Below are positions 6,209 through 11,445 of a DNA stretch of 64,000 nt, piece after piece. Made by a program: the position numbers and the translations under genes. Origin of the DNA: Thermoplasmata archaeon (GTDB lineage: Archaea; Thermoplasmatota; Thermoplasmata; Lutacidiplasmatales; UBA184); contig JBAUZT010000005.1 in the NCBI GenBank assembly GCA_049585415.1, positions 3,480-67,479 on the forward strand, in the 5' to 3' direction. The stretch's first letter is position 1. Each line of letters begins with the position of its first letter. The notes under the pieces were generated by a model. The model was not told the origin of the DNA and searched no databases. It worked only from the letters and a program-made list of their open reading frames with translations.

Positions 6209-6469
6209 CTAGGTGCTGGGCGGCGCCGGGGCCGGCGGATTGGGAAGGACGAGCCACATGCCGGCGAGCCCGAAGAGCAGCAGGGTGATGACGACGGCGT
6301 ACACTCCGTTGTCGATCCACACGCCGAAGGAGACTCCCCACCAGACGTAGAACGCGACCGCCAGGACGACGAGCGAAGCGAACCCCCAGAACGAAACCTG
6401 GCGGGTGAACGACATCTGGCGGAACCGGGCCGACTCCGGTTCCCCGGGGGGAAGCTCCGCGTCCGCCAT
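6209..6469 (-). CDS. Small hypothetical membrane protein with two predicted TM helices
   Basis: 86 aa with two hydrophobic helices (FWGFASLVVLAVAFYVWW and AVVITLLLFGLAGMWLVL). No recognisable family. Confidence 0.45.
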   Translation of the reverse strand: MADAELPPGEPESARFRQMSFTRQVSFWGFASLVVLAVAFYVWWGVSFGVWIDNGVYAVVITLLLFGLAGMWLVLPNPPAPAPPST

Positions 6470-6568
6470 CGGTGGTCATCGACCCGGCCCTCGTTAGATA
6501 ACCCTTACGGGGCGGCCGTCGACTCGGACGCGAGAAACCCTCGGGGGGCCCAACCACAGTTTTAACCG

Positions 6569-8176
6569 ATGTCCCGGACTAGAACGGTTCCGATGGCCGA
6601 AGCGCCGGAGGGGAGGGCCGGGCTCCCCGACGAGGCGACCGAGTTCGAGCGCCTCACCCCCGAGCAGCACCGGATCCTCGCCTACGCGAGTTCGATCGGC
6701 TCCGAGTTCGACTTCGGCCTCCTGGTCGCGGCGATGGGCCTCGGGGAGGAGCCGCTCGCGGAGCAGCTCGAGCACCTCGTCCACCTCGGGATCCTCCGGG
6801 AACGGACCGGCGGCGACCGGTTCAGTTTCGCGGAAGAAGAGTTCCGCGCCCGGGTCTATCGGTCCTTGACGGAGAGCCGCCTCCGGGTCCTCCATCGGAA
6901 GATCGCGGAGGCGATGGAGCGAAAATATCCGGAGCCGTCCCCCCAGCTCGTCGCCGAGCTCGGGCGGCACTTCTTTCTCGGGAAGCTCCCCGAAAAATCG
7001 CGGACGTACAACCGGAGGGCCGCCGAACGGGCCCGGGGCGCGGACGACCCCGAGACCGCCGCCGAGCACCTCGAGCGGGTCCGCGTCGACCTCGAAGCGG
7101 TGCGCTCGAGCCAACCCCACGACCTCGCGGAGGTGGACGAGGCCCTGGGAGAGCTGTACTACTCCGTCGGCAACTTCGGCGCCGCGGACCGATACTTCAC
7201 GGAGGCGCTCGGACTGCTCGGGAGCGACCAGCCCCGGATCCGGGCACGGCTGCTGCTCGCCCGCGCCGAGATCGCGCGAGAGAACCTCGACGTCGAGACC
7301 GCCACCCGGCTCGCGCTCGATGCCCAGAAGATGTTCGAGGCCGTCGACGACCGGCTCGGAAGCGCCCAGACGTACCGCCTGCTCGGCCGGGTCGCCTTCC
7401 ACCGGGGCGCGTACCGTGAGGCGCTCGACGAGAGCATGCGCGCGCTCGAGGCGGTCGGCGAGCGACGGGACCCGCGCCTCATCGGCGAGTTGTCGATCGA
7501 TATCGGGAACTCGTTCGCGCTCTTGGGGCCCGACGTGCGCTCGGAGGCGCTCCACTGGTACGACCGGGCGATCGAGCGCCTCACCCCGGTTCGCGACTGG
7601 GTCGAGCTCTCGCGCGCCTACCACAACCTCGGCGTGGCCGTCGGCGAGAGCCATCCTCAGGATGGGCTCGACCAGCTCGAACGGGCCCGGGAGATGGGCG
7701 ACCGGGCCCACGACCCTCGGTCCGTCGGGCGGTCGCTGCTCTCGGGCGTCGAGCTCCGCCTCGCGCTCGGGCAGCTCGAAGAGGCCGCGCGCGACAACGA
7801 ACAGGCCGGCCGACTGTTGGAACGGCTCGCCGACGAGCTCGGACTCGAGCAGGTCGAGGTCAATCGGGGCCTGATCGCCGAGAAGCTGGGACAGTGGGAG
7901 GACGCCGAACGGGCGTTCGAGAAGGCGATCGAGATCAGCCGACGGTTCCGGCTCCGGGCGGACGAGTCCGAGGTGTACTTCTATCTCGCCCGTTTGCGAT
8001 TCAAGACCCGCGACCTCGAGGGGGCGCGCCACGCCTTCCGCGCCGCGACGACACTCGGAGTGACGGAGCTGCGCCCGAACCTCGCCGCGGGCGTCGCCGA
8101 GCTGGCGCGTCAGCTGGAGAGCGCGGGAGAGCCGGCCCCCGCGACCGAGCCCGAGGGCACTCCCCGGACCTCGTGA
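6569..8176 (+). CDS. Winged-helix plus TPR-repeat protein; paralog of the C-terminal two thirds of the downstream STAND NTPase, with no NTPase domain
   Basis: N-terminal segment ILAYASSIGSEFDFGLLVAAM…LEHLVHLGILRE…FSFAEEEFRARVYRSL…RLRVLHRKIAEAME parallels the post-ATPase winged-helix segment of the next gene. Remainder is TPR-like helical repeats. Confidence 0.7.
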   Translation: MSRTRTVPMAEAPEGRAGLPDEATEFERLTPEQHRILAYASSIGSEFDFGLLVAAMGLGEEPLAEQLEHLVHLGILRERTGGDRFSFAEEEFRARVYRSLTESRLRVLHRKIAEAMERKYPEPSPQLVAELGRHFFLGKLPEKSRTYNRRAAERARGADDPETAAEHLERVRVDLEAVRSSQPHDLAEVDEALGELYYSVGNFGAADRYFTEALGLLGSDQPRIRARLLLARAEIARENLDVETATRLALDAQKMFEAVDDRLGSAQTYRLLGRVAFHRGAYREALDESMRALEAVGERRDPRLIGELSIDIGNSFALLGPDVRSEALHWYDRAIERLTPVRDWVELSRAYHNLGVAVGESHPQDGLDQLERAREMGDRAHDPRSVGRSLLSGVELRLALGQLEEAARDNEQAGRLLERLADELGLEQVEVNRGLIAEKLGQWEDAERAFEKAIEISRRFRLRADESEVYFYLARLRFKTRDLEGARHAFRAATTLGVTELRPNLAAGVAELARQLESAGEPAPATEPEGTPRTS

Positions 8177-8218
8177 ACGCCGACCAATCGATTATCTACC
8201 CGGGGCGCGTCAAAAACG

Positions 8219-10639
8219 TTGGTGTCGGCCTCCGAGACGTCGAGGGCGTCCTCGGTCCCTCCGATCTTTGGTCGCTCGGACGCGGTCGCCGAGATCGACC
8301 GGACGCTCGAGCACGCCGCCTCGGGGAAGGGCGAGGGCCTGCTGCTCTCGGGCGACGACGGTTCGGGAAAGAGCCACTTCCTCCGCTCCGCCGTCGTTCG
8401 CGCCCGGCACCGCCGATTCACCGTCCTCGAGGGCCGCGCACTGCCCGAAGATATCCCGCAACCGTTCTCGCTCGTGCGCGACCTCGTCCGCGCCGTCGCG
8501 CCCCCGGCTCGGGCCGACCCCGCGGCGACCGACCCCTCGTCCGCGTTGCCGACCTTTCTCGCCCCGTTCTCGGGCCGACCGGACGCTGCCGACGCCCCGC
8601 TCTCCGACCGGGGGGTGACGACGCTCGAGCCGGAGGCACACGGGACCCCCCGCACTCCGTTCGACGTCCCGGGCGAATGGATCGGGACCAGCCGGGAGGA
8701 GCTCTACGGAAACCTCACGCGGTACCTCCTCGACCTCGCGGGCGAGGGCCCCCTGCTCCTCGCGATCGACGACCTCCACTTCGCCGACCGGTCGTCGATC
8801 GAGTTCCTCGGTCGATTGGCGCCGAAGATCGGCGACCGGCCGATAGCGATCGTCGCGACCGTCGCGGTCGGGAGCCGGATCCCGGACCGAGTCCGCGAGA
8901 TGCTCGAATCGCTCGCGCGGTCGACGACGATGCGCACCGTGCCACTGCGCCCCCTCTCCTCGGCCGAGGTCGCGGAATTCGCGAGCTGGATCCGGCGCGG
9001 TCTCCCGCCCGACCCGGCGGACGTCCTGCGATGGCACGCGCAGACCGAGGGGAATCCCCTGTTCGTCGAGCAGCTCGTCCGATCCTCCACCGGGGCGGGC
9101 GTCCGGCCCTCGCCGCTCTCCGGTAGCGGGGGCCTTCGGGAGATCCTCCTCGGCCGCGTTCAGGAACTGAACGAGGTCGAGGCCCGGGTCCTCACCTATG
9201 CGGCACTGCTCGGGAAGGAGTTCGCCCTCTCGAACCTGGTCGCGATATCGGAGATGAGCGAGGAGCGGGTGACGGAGAGCCTGGACCGCCTGGTCGCGCT
9301 CGGCCTCCTGCGCGAAAAGGGCGACGGGGTCGTCGAATTCGTCACCGAAGGGGTGCGCGCCGGCGTCTACGCGAAGCTGACCGAGACCCGGCGCCGGATC
9401 CTGCATCGCCGCATCGGCCGTTCGCTCGAGGAGCACGGACGCGCGAGCGAATTCGAGCTCGCGCGGCAGTTCTACCTCGGTCGGGACGACCCCAAAGCGT
9501 CCGAGTACAACCTGCGCGCCGCGCAGACCGCCATGCGGGCGTTCGCGTTCGAGACCGCGGTCGCGCACCTCGACCGGGCGCTTGAGGCCGAGCGGCGTCG
9601 CGGCGACCGCGACTCGGCTCGCGAGTTGCGGATCCTGAACGAGCTCGGCCGCGCGCTGGACGAGCTCGGAGACCTCCGCCGTTCCGAGGTCGTCCTCTCC
9701 GAAGCCGTCCAACTCGCGCGGACCCGGCCGGACCTCGAGGCCGAGCTCGGACGGGCCCTCTTGAACCTCGCCCAGACCCGACAGGACCAGAGCGAGTACC
9801 CCTCCGCCGAGGCGCTCGCGCGCGAGGCGTACCGATGGCTCGAGCGGAAGGGCACCCCCCGCGAGATCATGATGGCCAACCGCGTCCTCGGGGTCGTCAA
9901 CTGGCGCCTCGGCAAGCTCGCGGAGGCGGAGACCCAGTTGCGGCTCGTGCTCGACATCGCCTCCCACGAGGGGACGTCGATCGAGCGCGGTCACGCGCTC
10001 GTCGACGTGGCGAACGTGATGCTCCAGCGCGACGACCGCGGATTCTCCCAGGCGCTCGAGCTCTACGAACAGGCCGCGGAACTGTTCGGCAGTGGACAGG
10101 ACCTCGGAGCGCGCGCCCGGGTGCTCATGAACCGCGCCGTGCTCCTCTACTCCGCCGGACGTCGCGAAGAGGCGATCGCCGGCCTCGACCAGGCGATCGA
10201 GGCCGCGGAACGCTCCCGCTCGCCGATTTGGATCGGCTACTGCTATCTCAACCGCGCCCTCATGGAGGCGGAGCTCGGGCACTCCGAGCCCGCGCGACCG
10301 GCCCTCGAACGGGCGTCCGCCTTCCTCCTGCCGCTCGGCGATCGGCTCGCCCCCGAGCAGATCTCGCTCGCCCGGGGGCTCCTCGCGGAGGCCGAGAAGG
10401 AGTACGACGCCGCCGAGGCGCACTTCGAGGACGCGTTGCGGCAGGCGCGCGCTCTCAACGCCGAGCCCGAGGTCTGCGAGATGCTCTTCCGGCTCGCCCA
10501 CGTCGCGTTCTCCCGGGGGGACCTTCCCCTCGCCCGAGAGCGGCTCGCCGGCGCGCGCGCGGCCGGGCTCGAGCGCCTCCGCGGGGACCTGGGGGGACGA
10601 GTCGCGGCTTTGGACACGGCCCTCGCTGCGTCGAACTAG
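8219..10639 (+). CDS. STAND-type P-loop NTPase with winged helix and TPR array (MalT/AfsR-like architecture) and no effector domain
   Basis: Walker A LLSGDDGSGKSHF; Walker B PLLLAIDDLHFAD; GNPLF motif (GxP of ARC/HETHS); winged-helix segment (LLGKEFALSNLV…VVEFVTEGVRAGVYAKL…RRRILHRRIGRSLEE); long TPR region. TTG/GTG start about 20–30 nt downstream of an ATTATCTACC TATA-like box. Confidence 0.8.
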   Translation: MVSASETSRASSVPPIFGRSDAVAEIDRTLEHAASGKGEGLLLSGDDGSGKSHFLRSAVVRARHRRFTVLEGRALPEDIPQPFSLVRDLVRAVAPPARADPAATDPSSALPTFLAPFSGRPDAADAPLSDRGVTTLEPEAHGTPRTPFDVPGEWIGTSREELYGNLTRYLLDLAGEGPLLLAIDDLHFADRSSIEFLGRLAPKIGDRPIAIVATVAVGSRIPDRVREMLESLARSTTMRTVPLRPLSSAEVAEFASWIRRGLPPDPADVLRWHAQTEGNPLFVEQLVRSSTGAGVRPSPLSGSGGLREILLGRVQELNEVEARVLTYAALLGKEFALSNLVAISEMSEERVTESLDRLVALGLLREKGDGVVEFVTEGVRAGVYAKLTETRRRILHRRIGRSLEEHGRASEFELARQFYLGRDDPKASEYNLRAAQTAMRAFAFETAVAHLDRALEAERRRGDRDSARELRILNELGRALDELGDLRRSEVVLSEAVQLARTRPDLEAELGRALLNLAQTRQDQSEYPSAEALAREAYRWLERKGTPREIMMANRVLGVVNWRLGKLAEAETQLRLVLDIASHEGTSIERGHALVDVANVMLQRDDRGFSQALELYEQAAELFGSGQDLGARARVLMNRAVLLYSAGRREEAIAGLDQAIEAAERSRSPIWIGYCYLNRALMEAELGHSEPARPALERASAFLLPLGDRLAPEQISLARGLLAEAEKEYDAAEAHFEDALRQARALNAEPEVCEMLFRLAHVAFSRGDLPLARERLAGARAAGLERLRGDLGGRVAALDTALAASN

Positions 10640-10650
10640 CCTCTACGGTT

Positions 10651-11445
10651 ATGGTGACCGGACCGCTCGCCGCCCCGATCGCGATGGTCGACGATGGCTC
10701 GCCGCACCCCGACCGCCGGGACCCGACGTTCGAGCGGGACGTGCGTCGGATGTTCACTCACATCGCCCAGCGATACGAGTGGTTCGACCATGTCGCGTCC
10801 ATGGGCAATGACCTCCTGTGGCGACCTCGCGCCCTCTGGGACCTCGACCGGTTCCGCTCCCCGGGACCAGTCGAGCGGATCCTCGACCTGGGATGCGGCA
10901 CCGGCGAGCTGACGCGGCTCGCCGCTCGGCATTTTCCGAGCGCGCGGGTCTTCGGCGTGGACTTCACGGCCGCGATGCTGTCGGTCGCCCGTCGGCGCAC
11001 CGACGGACTCGCTCCGGCGGGACGGATCTCCTACGGCCGCGCGACCGCGATGCGCCTCCCGTTCCCCGACGGGACGTTCGACCTCGCCACGAACGCGTTC
11101 CTGGCGCGGAACCTGGTCGACCTCGACGCGGCGCTCGCGGAGATGCATCGCGTCCTCCGTCCGGGCGGCGTCCTCCTCGTCCTCGAGATCACCGAGCCGG
11201 TCTCTCCCGCGTTCGGCGCGATCTTCCACGCGTACTTCGACCACGTCGTTCCGTGGCTCGGGGCCGCGGTCGACAGTGCGGGGCCGTACCGCTACCTTCC
11301 CGAATCGCTCCGACGGCTCCCCCCGCGCCCGAAGTTCCTCGACGCGCTCCGGGGGGCCGGGTTCTCCCGTGCCGAGGCGTTCCCGCAGTCGATGGGGATC
11401 GTCACGACGTTCCTCGCGGACGCGGGGCCCCGGCGAAGCCGTTAA
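10651..11445 (+). CDS. Class I SAM-dependent methyltransferase (UbiE/MenG-like)
   Basis: Motif I ILDLGCGTGELT and post-I GVDFTAAML. Start at MVTGPLAAP (10651), immediately after the stop of the preceding gene (10639). Confidence 0.8.
   Translation: MVTGPLAAPIAMVDDGSPHPDRRDPTFERDVRRMFTHIAQRYEWFDHVASMGNDLLWRPRALWDLDRFRSPGPVERILDLGCGTGELTRLAARHFPSARVFGVDFTAAMLSVARRRTDGLAPAGRISYGRATAMRLPFPDGTFDLATNAFLARNLVDLDAALAEMHRVLRPGGVLLVLEITEPVSPAFGAIFHAYFDHVVPWLGAAVDSAGPYRYLPESLRRLPPRPKFLDALRGAGFSRAEAFPQSMGIVTTFLADAGPRRSR

Follow-up and report, generated by a model that had tools for sequence, protein, structure and literature searches.

The two genes described here, A and B, are inherited as a unit and are part of the core genome in a clade of Thermoplasmata to which the Lutacidiplasmatales belong. 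B encodes a complete STAND switch module with intact motifs and without a catalytic or DNA-binding output domain, and A belongs to an older, ATPase-less lineage made up of a winged-helix domain (WHD), an arm and a TPR array. As the pair is co-inherited in well over a hundred species and is located among housekeeping genes, a conserved signalling module seems a better description of it than an immune system.

The window, a stretch of 64,000 nucleotides, comes from a soil archaeon of the Thermoplasmata, in which A and B are neighbouring genes. Open reading frames were found at 6569..8176 (+, 535 aa) and 8219..10639 (+, 806 aa, TTG start). In the initial annotation gene A began at 6569, but in the alignment all A orthologues begin at the ninth codon of this mechanically called ORF. 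Together with a conserved TATA-like box 33 nt before the corresponding ATG, this places gene A at 6593..8176 (527 aa).

Table 1. Features of the A-B locus, with positions counted from the first nucleotide of the window.
Feature	Position	Strand	Basis or remark
TATA-like box of gene A, TTTTAACC	6560..6567	+	First base 33 nt ahead of ATG 6593
CTAGAAC element	6579..6585	+	~14 nt upstream of A start codon; same position in most of the aligned upstream regions listed
Gene A, ATPase-less WHD-arm-TPR protein, 527 aa	6593..8176	+	ORFs, domains, orthologues, AF2
WHD of A, ORF residues 31-99	6659..6865	+	AF2 secondary structure; alignment to B WHD
Arm and TPR array of A, ORF residues 100-519, 22 helices	6866..8125	+	AF2, Foldseek
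TATA-like box of gene B, ATTATCTA	8191..8198	+	First base 28 nt ahead of B start codon
Gene B, effector-less STAND NTPase (NBD-HD-WHD-arm-TPR), 806 aa	8219..10639	+	Start TTG 8219 or GTG 8222
Walker A / P-loop of B, GDDGSGKS, residues 45-52	8351..8374	+	G45, G48, G50, K51 invariant
Walker B of B, LLLAIDD, residues 179-185	8753..8773	+	D184, D185 invariant; AF2 strand 179-184
GxP motif of B helical domain (HD), GNPLF, residues 278-282	9050..9064	+	Invariant in orthologue alignment
WHD of B, residues 306-385	9134..9373	+	AF2 helices and strands fit winged helix; aligns with A WHD
Arm and TPR sensor array of B, residues 386-806	9374..10636	+	Pfam TPR_12, TPR_MalT; Foldseek

B is a STAND NTPase of the MalT/PH0952 type, composed of an AAA_16 nucleotide-binding domain (NBD), a helical domain, a WHD, an arm and a TPR array. 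Pfam matches are confined to AAA_16 (residues 16-209, E 3.7e-15) and TPR families, with TPR_12 at E 1.6e-24 and TPR_MalT at 33.5 bits, under its 45-bit cut-off; the latter is below cut-off in A as well. The motifs in Table 1 are invariant across 26 orthologues, and G48, G50 and K51 are still invariant in a wider alignment. In PH0952, the GxP motif contacts the adenine and the P-loop (PMC6468293). The AF2 model of B contains five NBD strands, the helical domain, the WHD and 22 helices in the arm and TPRs. With this model, Foldseek returned PH0952 (6mfv) as the top PDB match overall (716 columns, E 2.4e-12), followed by MalT domain III (1hz4), which superposes on the B TPRs with a TM of 0.77, and by Apaf-1.

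No effector domain was found in more than 120 B orthologues, nor in five more distant relatives of ~800 aa. The orthologues are 780-816 aa long and contain AAA_16 and TPR domains only, which rules out B being a LuxR-HTH regulator that is simply truncated here. The P-loop is preceded by ~44 residues, and the AAA_16 match by ~15, where about 30 had been counted before the P-loop; the absence of an N-terminal effector still stands with the corrected leader length. Positions 477-1225 of the NCBIfam family TIGR03903 (TOMM kinase/cyclase fusion) could be aligned with residues 10-761 of B (E 8e-30), with 103 bits against a family cut-off of 706, and this alignment is limited to the ATPase-TPR part of the TIGR03903 protein.

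Protein A matches TPR families only in Pfam. Its AF2 model (pLDDT 90) consists of the WHD and 22 helices, and Foldseek aligned it best with LGN/Pins TPR domains (E 3.5e-10); PH0952 aligned over 439 columns. An alignment of 496 aa pairs A residues 26-512 with B residues 314-798, in the last 60% of B, at 31% identity (E 3e-40), a similarity that is far above chance. The winged-helix blocks on which the paralogy had been proposed are present, and A is indeed a paralogue with a WHD and TPRs and without an NTPase. It did not, as had been supposed, lose this domain as the local copy of B: origin by tandem or local duplication of B was rejected, as the arms and TPRs are only 26-28% identical and A groups with a separate ATPase-less lineage, apart from B. 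In another Thermoplasmata lineage, A-type ATPase-less genes form an eight-gene tandem array (locus L091), whose WHDs and arms are 75-78% identical, versus 51-54% for the C-terminal TPRs; this array does not adjoin the nearest full-length NTPase, which is ~11 kb away. In two further proteins, P0272 and P0404, an ATPase-less-type arm-TPR module, re-fused once, is joined to an NTPase core, and the chimera is conserved, indicating that such a module can function with an NTPase core.

Full-length orthologues of constant size of both A and B are found in ~190 species-level Thermoplasmata genomes, among them Lutacidiplasmatales. The pairing had been described as unusual for archaea; the architecture is indeed lineage-restricted, but within the Thermoplasmata it is common, with 195 matches among species-representative genomes and ~45 clusters of the same build (50% identity). 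A and B co-occur almost without exception. A lies directly upstream in essentially all B-centred loci of species-representative genomes, and B is directly downstream in 71 of the 71 testable metagenome loci centred on A. In one lineage B is present without A at the conserved locus (L074), and extra B copies without A are seen at L001 and L082. B thus sometimes occurs without A, but A was never seen without B downstream in those 71 loci, an asymmetry expected if A depends on B. Insertions are found elsewhere in the neighbourhood, and none between the A unit and B; the distance is longer only at L058 and L138, where A is tandemly duplicated, as it also is at L054.

Upstream of A are a conserved 86-aa gene on the opposite strand and then ProRS, both kept in 60 of 62 A loci. 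The wider conserved neighbourhood has a housekeeping character (DUF373, ProRS, UbiE methyltransferase, aminotransferase, TRM5/TYW2, TrmB and fumarase). The pair has the same GC content as its flanks, is inherited vertically across the clade in single copy, and evolves at ~1.5 times (A) and ~2 times (B) the rate of ProRS. The distance matrices of A and B show the highest correlation among 21 gene pairs (r 0.87; partial r 0.54 after removal of the housekeeping signal), bearing in mind that mirror-tree correlations are inflated for fast-evolving proteins with similar repeat composition.

An A/T-rich hexamer starts at -36 to -24 of A in 59 of 69 orthologous loci, with a peak at -35 to -31 and a background of ~70% GC; at -36 to -24 of B such a hexamer is found in 71 of 80 loci. 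The TATA-like box of B lies here 15-22 nt past the A stop codon. The median gap between A stop and B start across loci is 24 nt, so that the A stop codon in most loci falls in or beside this box. On this sequence evidence each gene has its own conserved putative promoter, and A and B therefore need not be co-expressed. The CTAGAAC element could be a promoter-proximal element or the site of a regulator.

Our best guess, held with slightly less than even confidence, is that A and B make up an ATP-dependent scaffold switch of two proteins, with A docking in trans on B. As in other STANDs, a ligand on the TPR sensor of B would release autoinhibition, whereupon B would swap ADP for ATP and its core would oligomerise. 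With no effector fused to B, it is probably the assembled TPR/WHD platform that serves as the output, and this platform would recruit partner proteins or sequester them. A retains the WHD and arm, i.e. the STAND parts that normally pack against the NBD, plus a sensor, and would thus most likely dock on the NBD of B or enter the B oligomer. To our knowledge, packing on the nucleotide-binding core is the sole role described for the WHD in STANDs. It is plausible that A acts on B as a decoy or co-sensor, providing a second sensor input or a brake, and the role of the pair would be in conserved cellular regulation, not in antiviral defence.

Alternatively, the two proteins might be functionally independent, B being a solitary STAND switch or scaffold and A a stand-alone TPR adaptor of STAND-sensor descent, with the genes being neighbours through unchanged regional inheritance. 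We consider this rather less likely, although it has to be taken seriously. Adjacency alone is no proof of functional coupling, since all neighbouring genes are equally syntenic across the clade, and insertions between A and B would be selected against anyway, given the very short gap that overlaps the B promoter. The separate TATA boxes, the derivation of A from a lineage other than that of B, the solitary B relatives in other genomes (and at L074) and the distance of the L091 array from a full-length NTPase also fit independence. What it leaves unexplained is the invariable position of B downstream of A, the retention of a highly conserved WHD in ATPase-less proteins, and an A-B distance-matrix correlation that tops those of the neighbourhood genes.

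The initial annotation likened the pair to NLR sensor/helper pairs and suggested that it could be a signalling or defence-like module. In an Avs/NLR-type antiviral or conflict system, A would be the sensor or decoy and B the helper of a cell-killing effector encoded elsewhere. Prokaryotic STAND clades are often defence-associated, and interspersed with non-defence clades (PMC13581612); the eight-gene array, with its variation concentrated in the C-terminal TPRs, resembles a receptor repertoire, and the tandem duplications of A point the same way. However, PADLOC gave no significant match for A or B, and only generic methyltransferase matches for their neighbours, which are housekeeping genes with no defence gene within 5 kb. 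The constant lengths, vertical single-copy inheritance, modest rates relative to ProRS, and lack of a GC anomaly or patchy distribution likewise speak against defence. Thus neither defence context nor an effector, the two criteria of the systematic STAND survey, is seen here, and a defence role is improbable.

Still a little less probable is that A and B are transcription regulators whose winged helix itself binds DNA, as in Orc1/Cdc6 or ordinary archaeal wHTH factors, which would make a separate output domain unnecessary. MalT, PH0952, AfsR and GutR, the nearest relatives to have been characterised, regulate transcription, and a basic helix follows the WHD (LTESRLRVLHRKIAE in A, LTETRRRILHRRIG in B). 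Yet these relatives all use a dedicated LuxR, ArsR-like or SARP domain, of which A and B have none. At the recognition position of the WHD, all members of both families have an acidic helix, whose net charge averages -3.4 for A and -2.1 for B (the third helix of A, EEPLAEQLEHLVH, has -4), and the whole proteins are acidic (pI 5.2 for A, 5.6 for B).

A reading of A as the decaying remnant of a gene, or of B as a truncated regulator, through pseudogenisation or an annotation artefact, is refuted by conservation: each protein forms more than 120 clusters of constant length and 50-90% identity, all A orthologues (514-543 aa, 63-90% identical) share one N-terminal boundary, A has its own conserved promoter and a confident AF2 model, and the upstream DNA is filled by the 86-aa gene and ProRS, leaving no room for an NTPase remnant. 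The single oddity touching this reading, which has nothing else in its favour, is a close A homologue (P0121) whose C-terminal 70 residues are divergent, in what looks like a frameshift in that assembly.

Among known systems, B shares its domain order, from NBD through HD, WHD and arm to TPRs, with PH0952, a TPR-sensor STAND from the archaeon Pyrococcus horikoshii (PDB 6MFV). The two are 14% identical, and the similarity of their cores is undetected by sequence profiles. Unlike B with A, no ATPase-less partner is described in the PH0952 paper. MalT, the LAL/AAA_16-TPR regulators, AfsR and GutR share with B an AAA_16-type core with hhhhDD and GxP motifs and a TPR-like sensor, but for DNA binding MalT-type regulators have a LuxR or SARP domain, which A and B lack. 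The trans-acting inhibitors of MalT are, as far as is known, unrelated enzymes, not sensor paralogues. As described in PMC10427625, the activity of MalT is modulated in trans by MalY, MalK and Aes, which bind the resting form.

The best whole-length family match of B is to bacterial kinase/cyclase-AAA_16-TPR fusions (TIGR03903 and similar, 1000-1300 aa). Their N-termini are ~270-480 aa longer, compared with only ~15 residues before the core in B; in the more distant representatives of 1000-1300 aa, the core begins at residue 270-450. The kinase/cyclase part, which going by the family name is N-terminal in TIGR03903, is absent from B.

Avs proteins have effector domains such as nucleases. Avs and other antiviral STANDs resemble B in their STAND core superfamily and large C-terminal repeat sensor, but Avs sit in defence contexts, whereas A and B have neither effector, defence context nor PADLOC match. 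For antiviral STANDs of this kind, PMC13601566 describes oligomerisation upon ligand binding. Sensor/helper pairs of plant and animal NLRs resemble A and B in that labour is split between two related receptor-family proteins encoded adjacently, and their tandem expansion of the sensing partner recalls the eight-gene array. As far as is known, canonical NLR pairs keep the nucleotide-binding domain in both partners, and what truncated plant NLRs usually retain is the signalling domain at the N-terminus, not the WHD and sensor. A, by contrast, keeps the WHD, arm and sensor without the NTPase, and an immune role is not indicated.

Both open reading frames named in the initial annotation are present in the window. 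The downstream one, gene B, encodes a genuine STAND core and a sensor but no effector. Its P-loop NTPase is recognized by Pfam as AAA_16 (residues 16-209, E 3.7e-15), contains Walker A (GDDGSGKS, 45-52) and Walker B (LLLAIDD, 179-185) motifs with key residues that are invariant in 26 orthologues, and is modelled by AF2 with five parallel strands and the P-loop after strand one. The helical domain (HD) carries a GxP motif (GNPLF, 278-282) that is invariant among orthologues and precedes a winged-helix domain (WHD, 306-385), and the remainder of the chain, the arm and the C-terminal repeat sensor, is made up of 22 helices (389-804; TPR_12, E 1.6e-24). The B model has a pLDDT of 80; an insert at 94-156 is variable and disordered, and the HD is poorly modelled (pLDDT below 50 at 258-304). 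Its closest PDB match is PH0952 of Pyrococcus horikoshii (6mfv; 716 columns, E 2.4e-12), an archaeal STAND with a TPR sensor, and further matches are MalT domain III (1hz4, TM 0.77) and Apaf-1. PDB sequence searches with full-length and core-only profiles returned only TPR and generic P-loop matches, and no solved STAND core.

The proposal that B is STAND-like and has no fused output domain was confirmed with Pfam, NCBIfam and PADLOC, which found no effector domain in B, only AAA_16 and TPR. Its orthologues likewise yielded these two families and no effector, and the B model has no unassigned folded region. No GerE/LuxR-type or other HTH was matched, and the TPR helices run to residue 804 of 806. 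The top NCBIfam match is a TOMM kinase/cyclase fusion protein (positions 477-1225 aligned to B 10-761, E 8e-30), but the score is far under the family cut-off and the aligned portion is the ATPase-TPR part. An effector domain at either end is usual for STANDs but is not strictly required (PMC6468293).

Locations of the genes, promoter elements and related loci (P, homologous proteins; L, genomic loci compared)
Feature	Location	Strand	Remarks
86-aa ORF	6209-6469	-	divergent from A; 54-88% identity, nearly always flanked by ProRS and A
TATA-like box of A	6560-6567	+	TTTTAACC; A/T-rich hexamer
ORF A, mechanical	6569..8176	+	535 aa
CTAGAAC element	6579-6585	+	about 14 nt before A start codon; most orthologous loci
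Gene A, corrected	6593..8176	+	527 aa; every A orthologue starts at the ninth codon of the ORF
TATA-like box of B	8191-8198	+	ATTATCTA; A/T-rich hexamer
Gene B	8219..10639	+	806 aa, TTG start
Methyltransferase gene, window	10654-11442	+
Methyltransferase gene	L001:12930-13736
Methyltransferase gene	L090:16802-17554
Methyltransferase gene	L091:1-378
Methyltransferase gene	L091:15580-16368
Tandem array, eight co-directional ATPase-less WHD-arm-TPR genes	L091:514-14776		JGI 3300033405, contig Ga0326727_10000748
P0404, full-length STAND	L090:10001-12370		about 11 kb from array, same contig
P0272, full-length STAND	L085:6001-8394

The upstream gene, A, was shortened by eight codons on the basis of its orthologues. 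Its product is a STAND derivative, not a STAND. Pfam finds TPR families only and no AAA match, and A is 31% identical to B over 496 residues (E 3e-40), in keeping with its earlier description as a WHD and TPR paralogue without an NTPase. Since A 26-512 aligns with B 314-798, A corresponds to all of B after the helical domain. The AF2 model of A (pLDDT 90) consists only of a winged helix (31-99), preceded by some 20 residues, and 22 further helices; its closest structural matches are LGN/Pins TPR domains, and PH0952 is matched over 439 columns. The TPRs of A at 301-420 are conserved among its orthologues as strongly as the WHD. The WHD of either protein is unlikely to bind DNA directly, since both families have an acidic helix in the recognition position. 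The closest homologue of A, P0121 (92% identity), diverges completely from every other orthologue in its last ~70 residues, as is typical when an assembly contains a frameshift. No further paralogues of A or B were found within the window.

Each gene appears to have its own promoter. Against a background of about 70% GC, an A/T-rich hexamer is found before the B start in 71 of 80 loci, at about -32 to -28 (range -36 to -24), and before the corrected A start in 59 of 69 loci, at about -35 to -31 (same range). The spacing rule for TATA boxes that drive leaderless mRNAs in archaea is well established, and the position of both hexamers fits it. The B start follows the A stop by a median of 24 nt, and hence the A stop codon usually lies in or beside the B TATA box. 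At 8174-8198 in the window, and at the equivalent site in about 70 loci, the stop is within, or a few bases from, the TATA-like box. Read from sequence, A and B are thus tightly abutted and separately promoted. The very high GC content also generates spurious long ORFs on both strands, of which 6494..8032 (-) and 8210..10501 (-) overlap A and B, and in related contigs automatic annotation sometimes places a gene on the wrong strand (e.g., L002:14421-15377).

Orthologues of B form more than 120 clusters (780-816 aa, 50-81% identity, full coverage), assigned to Thermoplasmata where named, and those of A also form more than 120 (514-543 aa, 63-90% identity). A scan of species-representative genomes gave 195 matches to B; those listed are all Thermoplasmata/Thermoplasmatota MAGs, and the B-bearing taxa include Ca. 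Lutacidiplasmatales and Lutacidiplasma silvani. The initial annotation had allowed that A might be a pseudogene or B a truncated regulator; both are ruled out by constant length, conservation and conserved promoters. No NTPase remnant is present upstream of A, nor is there coding room for an NTPase, as ProRS and the conserved 86-aa gene, which is on the opposite strand, occupy that DNA. The product of the 86-aa gene matches no Pfam family and, judged by eye, has hydrophobic, possibly membrane-spanning stretches.

In 80 B-centred loci, B is immediately preceded by an A orthologue (41-80% identity; 52-80% save in two loci) wherever the preceding DNA is available, the exceptions being L074 and the extra B-clade copies at L001 and L082. 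The conserved gene order is DUF373, ProRS, 86-aa gene, A, B, UbiE-type methyltransferase, class I/II aminotransferase, TRM5-TYW2, TrmB and fumarase. An independent scan of A-centred metagenome loci found ProRS or the 86-aa gene upstream in 60/62 and B downstream in all 71 testable cases, in one of them behind a tandem A duplicate. The relationship is asymmetric: no A was observed without a B, but some B genes stand without an A. At L074:9620-10001, from a divergent lineage (MAG SubAcS15-31), B, preceded by a TATA box of its own, comes straight after the 86-aa gene; A is missing from the locus, and the 190-nt spacer shows no remnant of it. Extra B-clade copies without A lie outside the conserved neighbourhood at L001:10001-12397 (P0097, 73-76% identical to syntenic B proteins) and L082:10001-12400, the latter in the same MAG as the canonical A-B pair of L021; at L001 a GvpD/KaiC-like P-loop gene is located 2.8 kb upstream. 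Tandem duplication of A is seen in a few genomes (L058:6736-9925, L054:3-2788 and L138), and the L058 copies are 79% identical.

Class I SAM methyltransferase genes occur near members of the STAND/TPR family in 4 of 7 contexts, a recurrence that is probably due to chance as such genes are very common. A mobile island or horizontal transfer was rejected, since there is no GC deviation around A-B (the window is ~70% GC) and synteny is kept across the clade.

We suggest that B might be an ATP-dependent oligomerising switch, the output of which would be the assembled scaffold itself, and that A, as a co-sensor or a brake, might influence B in trans. The proposed action in trans is based on what A has retained: a sensor, and the WHD and arm, which in STANDs are the parts packed onto the nucleotide-binding domain (NBD). 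The main alternative, in which A and B are neighbours with unconnected functions, seems somewhat unlikely. Adjacency alone is weak evidence of coupling because the whole region is syntenic; the unbroken association of A with B nevertheless argues against independence. Mean Kimura distances across 35 genomes are 0.56 for A, 0.79 for B, 0.38 for ProRS and 0.20 for TrmB, and the A and B distance matrices have the highest correlation among 21 gene pairs (r 0.87, partial r 0.54), which as a sign of coupling is suggestive only.

The supposition that A is an adjacent copy of B that lost its NTPase was not upheld. A tandem duplication of B was rejected, given that the arm and TPR regions of A and B are only 26-28% identical and that A groups with the B clade in 0/60 neighbour-joining bootstraps, compared with 58/60 for grouping with the full-length STAND P0272. 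P0272, and not B, is also the top full-length match of A: the two are 36% identical and score 276 bits, whereas no B orthologue exceeds 187 bits. Searches with P0272 recovered ~15 full-length proteins and ~45 ATPase-less ones; the latter are ~510 aa long and share 52-64% identity with the C-terminal 62% of P0272. Eight genes of the ATPase-less kind form a tandem array on a 130-kb contig of 58% GC; the proteins (508-513 aa) have a pairwise identity of 58-73%, and the genes are separated by gaps of 65-110 nt. Conservation along the array proteins is highest in the WHD and arm (75-78%) and lowest in the C-terminal TPRs (51-54%).

Region-wise comparison overturned the derivation of A from a P0272-like full-length STAND by NTPase loss. 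The WHD of P0272 and P0404 is 51-77% identical to that of P0415/P0277 and only 32-42% to array proteins, whereas their arm and TPR regions are 59-69% identical to array proteins and 24% to P0415. From these sequence identities, both look chimeric, with a core and WHD of P0415/P0277 type and an arm and TPR of array type, and the apparent junction is just after a conserved LH(R/K)K helix. A itself is 52-58% identical to the array family in the WHD and 32-35% in the arm and TPR. The most economical reading would be that the ATPase-less WHD-arm-TPR lineage is old and embraces both A and the array family, that it expanded in one Thermoplasmata lineage, and that its arm-TPR part was grafted back onto an NTPase core at least once.

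The core of B (residues 1-410) matches 54,645 representative clusters at E <=1e-3, but only 69 at E <=1e-30. Around 45 clusters consist of proteins of 790-830 aa in which the core begins at residue 5-15, the same effector-less build as B; in more distant relatives (1000-1300 aa) it begins at residue 270-450. One relative with 42% identity retains A and the synteny. Three distant relatives of ~800 aa (P0277, P0272 and P0269) are encoded by solitary genes, surrounded by archaeal housekeeping genes for P0277 and by mixed, largely unannotated or metabolic genes for the other two; on the basis of their neighbours these relatives are probably archaeal. Giant proteins of 2000-3300 aa (P0259, annotated as Actinomycetota, P0278, P0294 and P0286) have 2-4 internal matches to the B core and may be concatenated STAND modules.

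In the usual view, a STAND/NLR protein combines sensor, switch and effector in one polypeptide. Here, an entire archaeal clade keeps an effector-less switch and sensor under purifying selection, beside a relative that has only the WHD that contacts the switch, the arm and the sensor. If A and B cooperate, STAND signalling could be shared by separate polypeptides, with the division at the NBD/WHD boundary, and the assembled scaffold itself could be the output. A more doubtful, broader proposal is that ATPase-less WHD-arm-TPR proteins are detachable sensor subunits, plugging into an effector-less STAND ATPase core through their conserved WHD and arm. One ATPase would then serve one sensor in the window, two at L054 and L058, or a repertoire of eight genes at L091, in a signalling, possibly immune, architecture, and the re-fusion of sensors in P0272 and P0404 would be a natural experiment showing compatibility. 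The eight-paralogue array and the natural re-fusion provide comparative material for this question, and the proteins, being expressible and well predicted, are practical targets for structural work on trans regulation of TPR-sensor STANDs. If A and B are independent, the finding reduces to the annotation of a lineage-specific family of uncultured soil and peat Thermoplasmata. Literature searches found no description of a split STAND with detachable sensors, and nothing relevant on ATPase-less STAND paralogues or effector-less archaeal STANDs.

The idea of a defence-like module, also raised in the initial annotation, is not supported. PADLOC matched A and B only to a generic TPR model, and the neighbours are housekeeping genes with generic methyltransferase matches, with no defence genes near A-B. 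Defence context or a defence effector was taken as the criterion (PMC13581612); by the standards of Avs and other known systems, A-B has no system model match, no effector domain and no defence genes within ~5 kb. An NLR-type sensor/helper pair consists of two adjacent receptor genes that work jointly and depend on each other physically or genetically; A and B co-occur and may depend on each other in this way. In amyloid-motif NLR/effector pairs (BASS-type), the NLR carries a short conserved N-terminal motif that recurs at the C-terminal end of the neighbouring gene product. No such shared motif was found, and matching amyloid-like motifs were rejected because the opening 15 residues of B and the final ~20 of A vary from one orthologue to another, and disorder is predicted for both.

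The components are of kinds already known, a STAND NTPase and TPR proteins, while literature searches found no description of the combination of an effector-less STAND fixed in an archaeal clade's core genome, a constant ATPase-less WHD-sensor partner and, in a related lineage, arrays of such partners and a natural re-fusion. From MalT/LAL activators B is set apart by its lack of a C-terminal LuxR HTH, and both proteins score below the gathering cut-off of 45 bits for TPR_MalT (PF17874; B 33.5, A 42.8). The nearest solved structure, PH0952, has a WHD histidine (H382) that contacts nucleotide (PMC6468293). B was not assigned to the PH0952-like archaeal STAND regulators; these have an N-terminal feature (PMC6468293), whereas in B only ~15 variable residues precede the core.
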